Positions 37,945-45,202 of a stretch of DNA of 48,307 bases are shown here, in pieces. The first letter of the stretch is position 1, and every line of letters begins with the position of its first letter. Position numbers and translations under genes: made by a program. The stretch lies in NCBI RefSeq assembly GCF_003334385.1, contig NZ_QOWN01000033.1; one strand, given 5' to 3'. The notes beneath the pieces were generated by a model. The model was not told the DNA's origin. It saw nothing but the letters and a program-made list of their open reading frames with translations, and did no database searches. This stretch comes from Escherichia coli (GTDB lineage: Bacteria > Pseudomonadota > Gammaproteobacteria > Enterobacterales > Enterobacteriaceae).

Positions 37945-38721
37945 ATGATGAATCCATTAATTATCAAACTGGGCGGCGTACTGCTTGATAGTGAAGAGGC
38001 GCTGGAACGTCTGTTTAGCGCACTGGTGAATTATCGTGAGTCACATCAGCGTCCGCTGGTGATTGTGCACGGCGGCGGTTGCGTGGTGGATGAGCTGATG
38101 AAAGGGCTGAATCTGCCGGTGAAAAAGAAAAACGGCCTGCGGGTGACGCCTGCTGATCAGATAGACATTATCACCGGAGCACTGGCGGGAACGGCAAATA
38201 AAACCCTGTTGGCATGGGCGAAGAAACATCAGATTGCGGCCGTAGGTTTGTTTCTCGGTGACGGCGACAGCGTCAAAGTGACCCAGCTTGATGAAGAGTT
38301 AGGTCATGTTGGACTGGCGCAGCCAGGTTCGCCTAAGCTTATCAACTCCTTGCTGGAGAACGGTTATCTGCCGGTGGTCAGCTCCATTGGCGTAACAGAC
38401 GAAGGGCAACTGATGAACGTCAATGCCGACCAGGCGGCAACGGCGCTGGCGGCAACGCTGGGCGCGGATCTGATTTTGCTCTCCGACGTCAGCGGCATTC
38501 TCGACGGCAAAGGGCAACGCATTGCCGAAATGACCGCCGCGAAAGCAGAACAACTGATTGAGCAGGGCATTATTACTGACGGCATGATAGTGAAAGTGAA
38601 CGCGGCGCTGGATGCGGCCCGCACGCTGGGCCGTCCGGTAGATATCGCCTCCTGGCGTCATGCGGAGCAGCTTCCGGCACTGTTTAACGGTATGCCGATG
38701 GGTACGCGGATTTTAGCTTAA
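37945..38721 (+). CDS. argB: Acetylglutamate kinase ArgB (258 aa)
   Basis: ORF contains [45 protein letters not shown]...; canonical start internal to the track ORF. Confidence 0.94.
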
Positions 38722-38781
38722 GTTTTGTTGGCCGGAGGCGCAGCTTTCCGGCATTGAATTTCAAAATAAGGAAACAGAGTT

Positions 38782-40155
38782 ATGGCACTTTGGGGCGGGC
38801 GTTTTACCCAGGCAGCAGATCAACGGTTCAAACAATTCAACGACTCACTGCGCTTTGATTACCGTCTGGCGGAGCAGGATATTGTTGGCTCTGTGGCCTG
38901 GTCCAAAGCCCTGGTCACGGTAGGCGTGTTAACCGCAGAAGAGCAGGCGCAACTGGAAGAGGCGCTGAACGTGTTGCTGGAAGATGTTCGCGCCAGGCCA
39001 CAACAAATCCTTGAAAGCGACGCCGAAGATATCCATAGCTGGGTGGAAGGCAAACTGATCGACAAAGTGGGCCAGTTAGGCAAAAAGCTGCATACCGGGC
39101 GTAGCCGTAATGATCAGGTAGCGACTGACCTGAAACTGTGGTGCAAAGATACCGTTAGCGAGTTACTGACGGCTAACCGGCAGCTGCAATCGGCGCTGGT
39201 GGAAACCGCACAAAACAATCAGGACGCGGTAATGCCTGGTTACACTCACCTGCAACGCGCCCAGCCGGTGACGTTCGCGCACTGGTGCCTGGCCTATGTT
39301 GAGATGCTGGCGCGTGATGAAAGCCGTTTGCAGGATGCGCTTAAGCGTCTGGATGTCAGCCCGCTAGGCTGTGGCGCGCTGGCGGGAACGGCCTATGAAA
39401 TCGACCGTGAACAGTTAGCAGGCTGGCTGGGCTTTGCTTCGGCGACCCGTAACAGTCTCGACAGCGTTTCTGACCGTGACCATGTGTTGGAACTGCTTTC
39501 TGCTGCCGCTATCGGCATGGTGCATCTGTCGCGTTTTGCTGAAGATCTGATTTTCTTTAACACCGGCGAAGCGGGGTTTGTGGAGCTTTCTGACCGCGTG
39601 ACTTCCGGTTCATCATTAATGCCGCAGAAGAAAAACCCGGATGCGCTGGAGCTGATTCGCGGTAAATGCGGCCGGGTGCAGGGGGCGTTAACCGGCATGA
39701 TGATGACGCTGAAAGGTTTGCCGCTGGCTTACAACAAAGATATGCAGGAAGACAAAGAAGGTCTGTTCGACGCGCTCGATACCTGGCTGGACAGCCTGCA
39801 TATGGCGGCGCTGGTGCTGGACGGCATTCAGGTGAAACGTCCACGTTGCCAGGAAGCGGCTCAGCAGGGTTACGCCAACGCCACCGAACTGGCGGATTAT
39901 CTGGTGGCGAAAGGCGTACCGTTCCGCGAGGCGCACCATATTGTTGGTGAAGCGGTGGTGGAAGCCATTCGTCAGGGCAAACCGCTGGAAGATCTGCCGC
40001 TCAGTGAGTTGCAGAAATTCAGTCAGGTGATTGACGAAGATGTCTATCCGATTCTGTCGCTGCAATCGTGCCTCGACAAGCGTGCGGCAAAAGGCGGCGT
40101 CTCACCGCAGCAGGTGGCGCAGGCGATTGCTTTTGCGCAGGCTCGGTTAGGGTAA
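38782..40155 (+). CDS. argH: Argininosuccinate lyase ArgH (457 aa)
   Basis: Full-length [36 protein letters not shown].... Confidence 0.96.
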
Positions 40156-40177
40156 GAACATTTATATGTATAAATTT

Positions 40178-40208
40178 GAGCCTGGCTTATCGCCGGGCTT
40201 TTTTATGG
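40178..40208 (+). terminator. Intrinsic terminator after argH
   Basis: GAGCCTGGC-TTATC-GCCGGGCTTTTTTAT. Confidence 0.6.
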
Positions 40209-40210
40209 CA

Positions 40211-40326
40211 AAAAAAAGCGGATCCTGGAGATCCGCAAAAGTTCACGTTGGCTTTAGTTATTCGAGTTGAGAAACTCTCGAAACGGGCAGTGACTTCAAG
40301 GGTTAAAAGAGGTGCCGCTCCGTTTC
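40211..40326 (-). ncRNA. oxyS: OxyS small regulatory RNA (about 109 nt) with its terminator
   Basis: Minus strand of 40218-40326 reads GAAACGGAGCGGCACCTCTTTTAACCCTTGAAGTCACTGCCCGTTTCGAGAGTTTCTCAACTCGAATAACTAAAGCCAACGTGAACTTTTGCGGATCTCCAGGATCCGC, matching my recollection of OxyS; the T-tract follows. Confidence 0.9.
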
Positions 40327-40354
40327 TGTGAGCAATTATCAGTCAGAATGCTTG

Positions 40355-40418
40355 ATAGGGATAATCGTTCATTGCTATTCTACCTATCGCCATGAACTAT
40401 CGTGGCGATGGAGGATGG
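40355..40418. promoter_or_regulatory. OxyR binding site / divergent oxyS-oxyR promoters
   Basis: GATAGGGATAATCGTTCATTGCTATTCTACCTATCGCCATGAACTATCGTGGCGATG with repeated ATAG/CTAT elements between the oxyS 5' end and the oxyR start. Confidence 0.6.
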
Positions 40419-40421
40419 ATA

Positions 40422-41339
40422 ATGAATATTCGTGATCTTGAGTACCTGGTGGCATTGGCTGAACACCGCCATTTTCGGCGTGCGGCAGATTCCTGCCACG
40501 TTAGCCAGCCGACGCTTAGCGGGCAAATTCGTAAGCTGGAAGATGAGCTGGGCGTGATGTTGCTGGAGCGGACCAGCCGTAAAGTGTTGTTCACCCAGGC
40601 GGGAATGCTGCTGGTGGATCAGGCGCGTACCGTGCTGCGTGAGGTGAAAGTCCTTAAAGAGATGGCAAGCCAGCAGGGCGAGACGATGTCCGGACCGCTG
40701 CACATTGGTTTGATTCCCACAGTTGGACCGTACCTGCTACCGCATATTATCCCTATGCTGCACCAGACCTTTCCAAAGCTGGAAATGTATCTGCATGAAG
40801 CACAGACCCACCAGTTACTGGCGCAACTGGACAGCGGCAAACTCGATTGCGTGATCCTCGCGCTGGTGAAAGAGAGCGAAGCATTCATTGAAGTGCCGTT
40901 GTTTGATGAGCCAATGTTGCTGGCTATCTATGAAGATCACCCGTGGGCGAACCGCGAATGCGTACCGATGGCCGATCTGGCAGGGGAAAAACTGCTGATG
41001 CTGGAAGATGGTCACTGTTTGCGCGATCAGGCAATGGGTTTCTGTTTTGAAGCCGGGGCGGATGAAGATACACACTTCCGCGCGACCAGCCTGGAAACTC
41101 TGCGCAACATGGTGGCGGCAGGTAGCGGGATCACTTTACTGCCAGCGCTGGCTGTGCCGCCGGAGCGCAAACGCGATGGGGTTGTTTATCTGCCGTGCAT
41201 TAAGCCGGAACCACGCCGCACTATTGGCCTGGTTTATCGTCCTGGCTCACCGCTGCGCAGCCGCTATGAGCAGCTGGCAGAGGCCATCCGCGCAAGAATG
41301 GATGGCCATTTCGATAAAGTTTTAAAACAGGCGGTTTAA
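40422..41339 (+). CDS. oxyR: LysR-family peroxide-sensing regulator OxyR (305 aa)
   Basis: ORF contains [44 protein letters not shown]... and the redox cysteines in HCLRD and GFCFEAG. Confidence 0.96.
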
Positions 41340-42722
41340 ACCGTTTAACGCAGCTACCCGATAGGCTTCCGCCATCGTCGGGTAGTTAAAGGTGGTGTTG
41401 ACGAAGTACTCAATAGTGTTGCCGCCACCTTTCTGTTCCATAATCGCCTGACCGATATGAATAATTTCGGCAGCGCGCTCGCCAAAGCAGTGAATACCCA
41501 GAATCTCTTTTGTTTCCCGATGGAACAAAATTTTCAGCGTGCCCACGTTCATGCCGACGATTTGTGCGCGTGCCAGATGTTTAAACTGGGCGCGGCCCAC
41601 TTCATATGGCACTTTCATTGCGGTCAGCTGCTGTTCGGTTTTGCCCACAGAGCTGATTTCCGGGATGGTGTAAATACCGGTAGGGATATCTTCAATCAGA
41701 TGTGCGGTGGCTTCGCCTTTTACCAGCGCCTGCGCGGCAATGCGCCCCTGGTCATAGGCCGCCGACGCCAGGCTCGGATAACCAATCACGTCGCCCACCG
41801 CGTAAACGTGTGGCTGTGCGGTCTGATACATGCTGTTGACCTTCAGCTGTCCGCGGCTGTCAGTTTCTAGCCCAATGTTCTGTAACGCCAGCGAATCGGT
41901 ATTACCGGTGCGACCGTTGGCATAGAGCAGGCAGTCAGCTTTCAGTTTTTTACCCGACTTCAGATGCATGATCACACCATCGTCACAGCCTTCGATCTTC
42001 TCGTACTCTTCGTTGTGACGAATCACTACGCCACTGTTCCAGAAGTGATAGGAGAGAGAATCTGACATCTCTTGATCGAGAAATGCCAGCAGGCGATCGC
42101 GGGTGTTGATCAGATCCACTTTTACATCCATACCGCGGAAGATCGACGCATATTCACAGCCGATCACTCCAGCACCATAGATAAGTACATGGCGCGGTTC
42201 GTGGTGCATGCTGAGAATTGAGTCGCTGTCGTAAATGCGTGGATGGGTGAAATCAACATCTGTTGGATGATATGGACGAGAGCCGCAGGCAATAACAAAT
42301 TTTTCAGCGGTTAGTGTTTCAACGCTGCCGTCCGGGCAATCCAGCGCCAACGTATGCTCGTCAACAAAGCGAGCGTTTCCCTGCAATATTTCACAGTGAT
42401 TACGTTCGTAAAATCCCTGACGCATGCGCGTTTGTTGATTAATCACGTTATCGGCATGGTTAAGGATATCGGCAAAAGAAGAGCGGAGCAGTCGGGAATG
42501 GTCGCTGTAAAGTGGGTTTTGATTGAATTCTATAATGCGGCTGACGGCGTGACGGAGAGCTTTCGACGGGATGGTGCCCCAGTGGGTGCAACCGCCGCCA
42601 ACATTTTGATAACGCTCGATAACTGCGACGCGCGCACCTTGCTTAACCAGGCCCATTGCAGCGCCTTCGCCGCCGGGGCCGGAACCTATTACTATGGCAT
42701 CGTAATCGTAGGAATGTGGCAT
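41322..42722 (-). CDS. sthA: Soluble pyridine nucleotide transhydrogenase SthA/UdhA (466 aa)
   Basis: Full-length [41 protein letters not shown]... with FAD and NAD Rossmann motifs. Confidence 0.96.
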
Positions 42723-43055
42723 GGTAGGGCTTACCTGTTCTTATACATAAAAGCAACAGAATGGTAACATTTTATCGCGGGTAAGCCAATTGATCCCCGT
42801 CATTTATCTGGCTATATCCTGAGCGGCCTTTGCTTTGTCTGTTTCTTACTTTTGCCCTGACGTTTTATTGGATTTTTATCGACGATACTCTCCGTTTAAG
42901 CGGCAGGTTTCCGCTGTACGTAAAAGAACCGGCCAAAGAATTGCAGTAAATATGTTTTATTGCGTTACCGTTCATTCACAATACTGGAGCAATCCAGTAT
43001 GTTCATTCTCTGGTATAGTGCCAGCAGTACTTTTGGCAAGGATTCAGACATCGTG

Positions 43056-43703
43056 ATGGGCGTAAGAGCGCAACAAAAAGAAAAAACCCGCCGTTCGCTG
43101 GTGGAAGCCGCATTTAGCCAATTAAGTGCTGAACGCAGCTTCGCCAGCCTGAGTTTGCGTGAAGTGGCGCGTGAAGCGGGCATTGCTCCCACCTCTTTTT
43201 ATCGGCATTTCCGCGACGTAGACGAACTGGGTCTGACCATGGTTGATGAGAGCGGTTTAATGCTACGCCAACTCATGCGCCAGGCGCGTCAGCGTATCGC
43301 CAAAGGCGGGAGTGTGATCCGCACCTCGGTCTCCACATTTATGGAGTTCATCGGTAATAATCCTAACGCCTTCCGGTTATTATTGCGGGAACGCTCCGGC
43401 ACCTCCGCTGCGTTTCGTGCCGCCGTTGCGCGTGAAATTCAGCACTTCATTGCGGAACTTGCGGACTATCTGGAACTCGAAAACCATATGCCGCGTGCGT
43501 TTACTGAAGCGCAAGCCGAAGCAATGGTGACAATTGTCTTCAGTGCGGGTGCCGAGGCGTTGGACGTCGGCGTCGAACAACGTCGGCAATTAGAAGAGCG
43601 ACTGGTACTGCAACTGCGAATGATTTCGAAAGGGGCTTATTACTGGTATCGCCGTGAACAAGAGAAAACCGCAATTATTCCGGGAAATGTGAAGGACGAG
43701 TAA
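43056..43703 (+). CDS. fabR: TetR-family fatty-acid biosynthesis repressor FabR (215 aa from this start; in-frame upstream ATGs at 42960 and 42999 are alternative starts)
   Basis: ORF contains [52 protein letters not shown]... with TetR HTH. Confidence 0.88.
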
Positions 43704-44062
43704 TGAAACAAGCAAATCAAGATAGAGGTACGCTGCTGCTGGCGTTAGTTGCTGGCTTATCGATTAATGGTACTTTCGCAGCGCTGTTTAGCTCCATTGT
43801 GCCATTTTCTGTATTCCCGATTATTTCCCTGGTGCTGACGGTTTACTGCCTGCATCAACGTTATCTTAATCGCACTATGCCGGTAGGCTTGCCGGGTCTG
43901 GCAGCTGCCTGTTTTATTCTCGGCGTACTGCTGTACAGCACGGTAGTTCGTGCGGAATATCCGGATATCGGCTCTAACTTCTTCCCGGCAGTACTCTCCG
44001 TCATTATGGTGTTCTGGATTGGCGCGAAGATGCGTAACCGTAAGCAGGAAGTTGCTGAGTAA
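43703..44062 (+). CDS. yijD: Small inner-membrane protein YijD (119 aa)
   Basis: [53 protein letters not shown]...; start overlaps the fabR stop (TAATG). Confidence 0.88.
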
Positions 44063-44070
44063 TCGGTATT

Positions 44071-44096
44071 ATGCCGGATGCTGACGCATCCGGCAT
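44071..44096. terminator. REP-like perfect palindrome between convergent yijD and trmA (likely bidirectional terminator)
   Basis: ATGCCGGATGC-TGAC-GCATCCGGCAT. Confidence 0.5.
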
Positions 44097-44101
44097 GGGT
44101 T

Positions 44102-45202
44102 TTACTTCGCGGTCAGTAATACGCCGCACTCCATATGGTGCGTGTAGGGGAACTGATCAAACAGAGCCAGACGTTCGACCTTGTGCGTCTGGCTTAATGT
44201 TTCCAGATTCTTGCATAACGTTTCCGGGTTACAGGAGATGTACAAAATACGCGGATACGCCTGCACCATTTTCTCGGTTTCACTGTCCAGACCGCTGCGC
44301 GGTGGGTCGACAAAAATGGTTTCGCACTGATAACTCTTTAAGTCGATCCCTTGCAGGCGGTTAAACTCGCGCACACCATTCATCGCCTGAGTAAATTCTT
44401 CTGCCGCCATACGAATAATTTGTACGTTATCAATATGGTTAGCTGCGATGTTGTATTGCGCAGCAGCAACCGACGGCTTAGCGATTTCGGTGGCTAATAC
44501 CCGATCAAAATTACGCGCCAGCGCTAATGAAAAGTTACCGTTGCCGCAGTACAGCTCCAGTAAATCGCCTTTTGAGCCTTTGGTTACGTCCAGCGCCCAT
44601 TCCAGCATCTGAATATTCATCGCCGCGTTCGGCTGGGTAAAGCTGTTTTCTACCTGACGGTAGATCATCTCTTTCCCTGCGACCGGCAGACGTTCATCGA
44701 TGTAATCCTGATCCAGCTCGATTTTGGTTTTCGTTGCCCGACCAATCAGATGCACATTCAGATTCTGCGCGCGCAGTGCATCGCGCAGGGCCTCCGCTTC
44801 CTGACGCCACTCATCATCCAGCTTCTTATGGTATAGCAGGGAAACCACCGCCTGATTACTCAGCGTAGTGAGGTAATCAATCTGGAACAACTTGTGGCGC
44901 AGAACGGGATTATTACGCACACCCGCAATCATCGCCGTCATCAACTGGTTGATAAGTTCACTGGCGGCGGGGAAGCTATCCACGCGGATGCGGCTTTTGG
45001 TTTGTTGATCGAAAATGATGTGATACAGGTCATCGCCATCGTGCCAGATGCGGAACTCCGCGCGCATCCGGTAATGACTGACCGGCGAGCGAAACACTTC
45101 CGGAACCAGGTCAGAAAACGGTGCCATCATACTTTGCAAACGTACCACTTTTTCGGCTAACTGCGCTTCATACTGTTCTGTTGGAAGGTGTTCGGGGGTC
45201 AT
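44102..45202 (-). CDS. trmA: tRNA/tmRNA (uracil-C5)-methyltransferase TrmA (366 aa)
   Basis: Full-length [43 protein letters not shown].... Confidence 0.96.

Follow-up and report, generated by a model that had tools for sequence, protein, structure and literature searches.

Layout of the oxyR–sthA junction

The window analysed here is a 48,307-nt stretch of E. coli DNA, of which ~38.7–43.7 kb carries the argH / oxyS / oxyR / sthA / fabR surroundings known from E. coli. oxyR occupies 40422–41339 on the + strand (305 aa, TAA at 41337–41339), and sthA lies on the − strand at 41322–42722 (466 aa), its TAA being read from 41324 to 41322 and appearing as TTA on the + strand. Both assignments follow from the list of open reading frames, from the RefSeq annotation of an identical locus and from protein family profiles. 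OxyR matches the NCBIfam equivalog NF008361 with 632.9 bits (cut-off 329) over residues 1–305 of 305; SthA, the Si-specific NAD(P)+ transhydrogenase, matches the equivalog NF003585 with 805.7 bits (cut-off 465) over its full length. The longest oxyR open reading frame begins at an ATG 10 codons upstream (40392–40421, +; 315 rather than 305 aa), but the profile and RefSeq favour the start at 40422. Divergent from oxyR is the OxyS sRNA at 40217–40326 (−; Rfam RF00035, 139.5 bits), with a terminator hairpin at 40236–40218 and a published 3′ end that maps to 40211.

The two coding regions meet tail to tail and share 18 nt (41322–41339, both strands; TTAAAACAGGCGGTTTAA), which fall within the segment 41320–41339 of the window, ttttaaaacaggcggtttaa. 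On the + strand the shared segment reads TTA AAA CAG GCG GTT TAA, encoding OxyR L301, K, Q, A, V and stop; on the − strand it reads TTA AAC CGC CTG TTT TAA, encoding SthA L462, N, R, L, F and stop. The two frames are in codon register, with the TAA of either gene serving as a TTA leucine codon in the partner, and the last five codons and stop of oxyR are the reverse complement of those of sthA, codon for codon. The same overlap is annotated by RefSeq in the identical E. coli locus (L001; oxyR 1623–2540, sthA 2523–3923), and the most divergent E. coli match found (L090) also has an overlap of 18 nt in RefSeq. The 18-bp tail-to-tail overlap claimed in the preliminary description, with stops at 41337–41339 (+) and 41322–41324 (−), is therefore confirmed by the sequence, the reading frames and RefSeq. 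Both partners are real genes, each has its stop inside the opposite-strand reading frame of the other, and the arrangement is conserved in orthologues, as expected for a convergent pair of overlapping coding sequences.

The poor conservation of the OxyR residues directly before the overlap is the one feature found that would favour an annotation artefact, in which one of the two proteins is actually shorter. However, stops, unlike starts, are unambiguous, so that there is no annotation ambiguity at these gene ends; both stops are read directly off the sequence. The OxyR and SthA family profiles align up to the final residues, and the stops are conserved, being retained as rare TTA/CTA codons of the partner in 96–100% of species. 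The artefact was rejected on these grounds, and its probability is negligible.

Conservation and coding constraint

Every one of 5426 complete E. coli genomes carries the oxyR–sthA locus. The wider comparison covers Enterobacterales, with Vibrio, Pseudomonas and Pasteurellaceae lying outside the set; the genome-collection scan contributed Enterobacteriaceae matches only, and the protein search listing comprises matches with an identity of at least 82%. Orthologues of oxyR and sthA are 91–100% identical in 80 species. The genes are adjacent and tail to tail in 88/88 loci from five Enterobacterales families; they overlap in 87 of the 88 species loci, by exactly 18 nt in 82. Among the Enterobacteriaceae that have both genes, the overlap measures 18 nt in 77 of 79 species and 27 nt in 2 of 79, Enterobacter soli and Pluralibacter gergoviae (L012, L077), where the oxyR TAA is replaced by CAG and a backup stop is used. 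The 18-nt overlap is found outside this family as well, in Erwinia, Hafnia, Serratia, Edwardsiella and Chimaeribacter. The overlap measures 9 nt in Musicola and in a Tatumella-like MAG; Pectobacterium, whose OxyR has 314 aa, shows a 43-nt overlap in another frame. Dickeya alone is without overlap, having a 116-nt spacer between sthA and oxyR. The overlap is ancient, and neither a chance arrangement nor a strain-specific one.

Within E. coli, two of the 5427 places matched by the 40300–42800 search of complete assemblies are in records labelled plasmid. Across 41262–41399 the species falls into two identity classes of similar size (≥99% identity in 2540 genomes, 95–99% in 2886), which differ at synonymous sthA sites beside the overlap.

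The 18-mer is almost invariant across 80 Enterobacteriaceae loci, and OxyR residues 299–300 and 291–292 are hypervariable. The SthA C-terminus is identical in all compared loci, both in Enterobacteriaceae and in the other families. The best explanation for the conservation of the OxyR tail LKQAV is this invariant C-terminus, encoded on the opposite strand. Codon usage points to selection on both stops themselves: TTA or CTA encodes sthA Leu462 in 78 of 81 loci, whereas these codons have a median frequency of 2.5% over 31 other conserved leucine columns; oxyR Leu301 has one of the two in 80/80 loci, compared with a median of 3.75% at other conserved leucine columns. As far as can be judged from these comparisons of sequence, the arrangement appears to be maintained by ordinary dual-coding constraints.

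A second in-frame oxyR TAA lies at 41346–41348 (+), three codons past the stop, and is the TTA of SthA Leu459. In 56% of 81 loci the codon for this leucine is TTA or CTA (median for other conserved leucines, 2.5%), and the backup stop may also be favoured. From a reading of the frames, loss of the oxyR stop would add 3 residues to OxyR where Leu459 is TTA/CTA and far more elsewhere, and SthA without its stop would run on for ~25 residues, to oxyR Ser276 (TCA).

In its geometry the junction is of the same kind as the prokaryotic convergent overlaps in the in-register antisense phase, in which TAA, TAG or TGA pairs with TTA, CTA or TCA. It shares with such overlaps an overlap of a few codons at the 3′ ends, stops that fall within leucine codons of the partner, and terminators inside coding sequence (PMC2174442). 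Its 18 nt exceed the mode of 4 nt among convergent overlaps, and its stability across five Enterobacterales families is unusual, although neither point amounts to an essential difference.

The exception, Dickeya, suggests how such an overlap can be resolved. Its sthA gene ends in TTAAACCGGTTATTTTGA, and the end of its oxyR gene, as reverse complement, is TTAAGCCGACTGTTTCGA, giving an OxyR tail ..LSKQSA; the two gene ends have the appearance of a duplicated ancestral 18-mer whose copies have since diverged. The Dickeya sthA stop is followed by AAACCGGT-N10-ACCGGTTT and six T, a predicted element with the shape of an intrinsic terminator. The overlap has apparently been resolved in Dickeya by duplicating the shared segment, and the non-overlapping arrangement would therefore be the derived state. 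The spacer itself (L083, ~3925–4005) is AT-rich and holds several tandem copies of a AAATCAATYGTTTT-like unit, as well as an extra degenerate copy of the TTAAGCCGAC element beside the oxyR stop.

On the other side of oxyR, seven of the loci (L082–L086, L088, L089) have a divergent gene at ~4940–5700 for a peroxiredoxin-glutaredoxin fusion (AhpC-TSA and Glutaredoxin domains, 243–244 aa), where E. coli has oxyS and argH. The genera concerned are Erwinia, Dickeya, Hafnia, Serratia, Edwardsiella and Chimaeribacter, together with the Tatumella-like MAG.

Transcript ends inside the partner gene

Published 3′ ends were placed on the window with the relation U00096.3 = window + 4118068, which was checked on the oxyS terminator end (4158279), corresponding to the seventh T after the stem at 40218. 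A consensus terminator scan gave no canonical intrinsic terminator within 120 nt of the overlap, and an Rfam scan of 38000–45000 returned OxyS only, with no known RNA element at the junction. According to the preliminary description, the genes leave no room between them for a terminator. This is literally so, as the empty terminator scan illustrates, but elements that form 3′ ends do exist, embedded in the coding sequence of the partner; because there is no DNA between oxyR and sthA, the 3′-end signals lie inside the partner genes.

The dominant Term-seq 3′ end of sthA is at 41277 (−; U00096.3 4159345; Adams et al. 2021, PMC7815308 Supplementary file 1), within oxyR and 45 nt past the sthA stop. 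It is classed there as ‘primary sthA, antisense oxyR’ and appears in 2 of 3 condition lists. It lies 5 nt past a hairpin of the sthA 3′ UTR at 41282–41307 (−), an inverted repeat with arms GGCCAUCC and GGAUGGCC and a 10-nt loop, antisense to oxyR codons 287–296. The 8-bp stem is GC-rich (6 G-C pairs), with a minimum free energy of −15.1 kcal/mol, which is not unusual for the base composition (z = −0.97). The hairpin was considered as an intrinsic terminator and rejected, since the stem is followed by UCUGCCAGCUG (UCUGCC), with no U-tract, and the consensus scan does not report it.

Comparison of orthologues suggests that the hairpin has been kept as RNA. Across 80 distinct sequences 94% of the cells of the stem alignment are paired, and three pairs are changed on both sides. 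In nine sequences, from Kluyvera, Intestinirhabdus, Cedecea colo and Dryocola, an A-U pair is replaced by G-C with no half-changed intermediates, through Ile289Val in OxyR and a synonymous GAT-to-GAC change at Asp294. RNAalifold missed the hairpin when applied to the sthA 3′ region, where five distant sequences align poorly; covariation was then scored explicitly, pair by pair against shuffles. There are 11 double-changed cells compared with 1.4 in the shuffles, and none of 500 shuffles reaches the observed value. These counts provide real, if modest, evidence that the oxyR reading frame maintains an RNA element on behalf of sthA.

Both strands also show read-through that depends on bicyclomycin (BCM), the inhibitor of Rho. 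Rho termination regions, defined by read-through on inhibition of Rho with BCM, are listed at 41441 on the + strand (U00096.3 4159509; Rho score 5.10, p = 3e-16; antisense to sthA) and at 40947 on the − strand (U00096.3 4159015; Rho score 5.81, p = 6e-31; antisense to oxyR) (PMC7815308 Supplementary file 2). In the published data read-through is thus increased by bicyclomycin on both strands, ~100 nt into sthA and ~375 nt into oxyR. On the − strand the read-through end zone of sthA comprises 40947–41071, from the terminator of the Conway map at ~41070, through a C-rich, G-poor stretch (40996–41071), to the Rho peak at 40947; the RNA from 41071 to 40996, directly before the Rho region, has a C/G ratio of ~2, while that of the + strand RNA at 41340–41465 is 0.7–1.6.

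For oxyR, PMC7815308 lists no dominant Term-seq 3′ end, and the position of its 3′ end is for this reason taken from the BCM data and the Conway operon map. The oxyR 3′ UTR is accordingly placed at 41340–41449 (+), antisense to the last ~36 sthA codons; it includes the Rho peak at 41441 and extends to the end of the Conway overlap at ~41449. It also includes two predicted stem-loops, at 41352–41387 and 41388–41432. The + strand at 41325–41450 folds very stably (−48.2 kcal/mol, z = −5.0), and this fold was considered as a selected structure of the oxyR 3′ UTR. It was rejected: covariation is not beyond that of shuffles, and the conservation is explained by sthA coding. In the helix 41388–41403 / 41417–41432, the variation at six pairs consists entirely of purine changes opposite U, changes that keep the pairing on the + strand and would break it on the sthA mRNA.

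In the mechanism proposed from these data, oxyR mRNA would be terminated by Rho ~100 nt after ribosome release at 41339 (at ~41441). Transcription of sthA would pass the hairpin, be terminated by Rho 250–375 nt downstream (~41070–40947), and the RNA would be trimmed back to the hairpin. The end at 41277 would then be the hairpin-protected, exonuclease-trimmed end of Rho-terminated transcripts, which matches a pattern described for Rho-terminated RNAs (PMC7815308). The junction resembles the cases of Rho termination with 3′-to-5′ trimming to a stem-loop (Dar and Sorek 2018, in the account given by PMC7815308) in its sharp Term-seq end past a GC-rich hairpin with no U-tract. It also shares with them a BCM-sensitive downstream read-through and, on the − strand, a C-rich, G-poor stretch before the Rho region; it differs in that the trimming step is inferred at oxyR–sthA.

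Alternatively, the ends could arise mainly where RNA polymerases moving towards each other collide at a stem-loop, that is, at a ‘bidirectional terminator’ of the SEnd-seq type. Such terminators (Ju et al. 2019) are described as lying between convergent E. coli pairs, as requiring a stem-loop and as having no U-tract; the sthA end at 41277 does follow a stem-loop that lacks a U-tract, and stem-loops are also present past the oxyR stop. However, bidirectional terminators are described as Rho-independent, whereas BCM-dependent read-through is significant on both strands here (5.1 and 5.8), which argues against pure membership of this class. In addition, the mapped ends of the two strands are 165 nt apart and do not share one element. 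Collision as the main determinant of the ends is for these reasons quite unlikely, and termination by Rho with trimming to the hairpin is the reading adopted below.

The view of the preliminary description that each transcript must extend into the other gene is borne out by the Term-seq end at 41277, the Rho regions at 41441 and 40947, and an overlap of 379 nt in the Conway map. The 3′-end mapping which it had proposed as a check is already available in published form, and places the sthA end in oxyR.

Double-stranded RNA and the question of coupling

Through their embedded 3′ ends, the oxyR and sthA mRNAs share 165 to ~380 nt of complementary 3′ sequence, giving double-stranded RNA (dsRNA) that is cut by RNase III. 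Such RNA has been captured with p19: the RNase III-cleaved cluster ‘oxyR sthA, 3′, Convergent’ maps to 41043–41387 on both strands (U00096.2 4157134–4157478; Huang et al. 2020, PMC7373196 Table S1d/e), and it is seen in exponential and stationary samples alike. The Conway operon map used in the same study has a − strand unit from a promoter at 4159080 to a terminator at 4157161, and the overlap length given is 379 nt. The pair is also among 165 convergent excludons found in at least half of 58 MG1655 transcriptomes (ExcludonFinder; PMC12288877, 2025). The published data thus provide both the overlapping transcripts and the RNase III-processed dsRNA that characterise an excludon, and the ‘scope for antisense’ between the two genes raised in the preliminary description has a physical basis in the dsRNA cluster and the excludome listing.

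None of this is new to the locus. The overlap is a textbook-annotated feature of E. coli whose transcript consequences are present in public datasets, to which nothing new is added here; the layout, the transcript overlap, the dsRNA and the excludon status were all published beforehand and are already known. As a class, convergent overlaps are common: E. coli has 58 convergent overlaps of coding sequences, and for 20% of the genes in such pairs an intrinsic terminator is predicted within the partner (PMC2174442). The oxyR–sthA case is an ordinary one.

The excludon concept goes back to Sesto et al. 2013. The outcome that defines an excludon is mutually exclusive expression, which for oxyR–sthA would be putative; the status of the pair comes from transcript overlap and dsRNA. 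The junction resembles the convergent excludons of E. coli (PMC12288877) in its opposed neighbours with overlapping 3′ transcription, its p19-captured dsRNA and its listing in Table 1 of that study, and differs from excludons generally in that the coding sequences overlap besides the UTRs. A closer relative is the mscL–arfA pair (PMC10070815), likewise a gammaproteobacterial convergent pair with overlap of 3′ UTR and 3′ coding sequence, a connection to stress pathways and the involvement of RNase III. For mscL–arfA, antisense control of mRNA stability and a phenotype were demonstrated by dedicated experiments (PMC10070815), whereas any such control at oxyR–sthA is hypothetical.

Two views of the dsRNA were compared. 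The one we regard as probable is that of a genuine, ancient overlap in which the stops are constrained by coding, the 3′ ends are embedded in the partner, and the dsRNA is mostly a tolerated by-product; its effect on OxyR and SthA levels would be weak at most. The proteome of an RNase III (rnc) mutant is consistent with this (PMC7373196). The final-column values of the table are 1.37 and 1.17 for SthA and 1.26 and 0.67 for OxyR, taken here as fold changes since each is the base-10 antilog of the log value beside it; the changes are small (0.67–1.37-fold) and give no sign of strong coupling. A search of the literature, including udhA and oxyR antisense, found no paper on either gene affecting the other. 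The adjacency of the genes in all 88 loci and the selected hairpin in oxyR are less readily placed under the by-product reading, as they could also reflect selection for coupling.

The opposing view is that of a selected convergent excludon, in which each gene would repress the other as RNA polymerases collide and RNase III cuts the 3′ duplex. It draws on the excludome listing (PMC12288877), the dsRNA cluster of both growth phases (PMC7373196), the tail-to-tail adjacency kept across five Enterobacterales families, the sthA 3′ hairpin embedded in oxyR with its compensatory changes, and the proven precedent of mscL–arfA (PMC10070815). Against it stand the narrow 0.67–1.37-fold range of the rnc-mutant proteomics and a literature in which no experiment on the oxyR–sthA pair was found. 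The comparative data also weigh against it: the length of the overlap drifts (9/18/27/43 nt), the Dickeya genes are separated by a spacer and a putative sthA terminator, and the invariant SthA C-terminus together with the retention of two stops fully accounts for the conservation of the 18-mer. In addition, negative autoregulation of oxyR would dampen small effects. A selected excludon is thus unlikely, and a regulatory coupling of OxyR and SthA is best kept as a possible candidate of low probability. More specifically, a working excludon in which oxyR and sthA lower each other by way of the embedded hairpin and the obligatory 3′ duplex is improbable.

It is through such coupling, if it were true, that the overlap would matter. 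An excludon would tie OxyR dosage to the demand for NADPH/NADH interconversion. In a working form, oxyR mRNA would fall, by way of collision and RNase III cleavage, when sthA is strongly transcribed, for example under NADPH excess, and oxyR transcription would act likewise on sthA; the set-point of the peroxide response would be tied to the pyridine-nucleotide balance across Enterobacterales, with Dickeya as a natural uncoupled variant. The pair would also become, after mscL–arfA, the second worked example of 3′-3′ antisense between stress genes, here involving a master redox regulator. The comparative points, namely the stops kept as rare TTA codons, the embedded hairpin and the Dickeya arrangement, illustrate in an unsurprising way how convergent overlaps are kept up and resolved.

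The 3′ duplex is not the only one recorded at sthA. A second p19 dsRNA cluster covers the 5′ end of the gene at 42532–42735 (U00096.2 4158623–4158826; PMC7373196), and the same study reports an antisense start site at 4158793 (+), which corresponds to 42702 in the window and lies within the first sthA codons.
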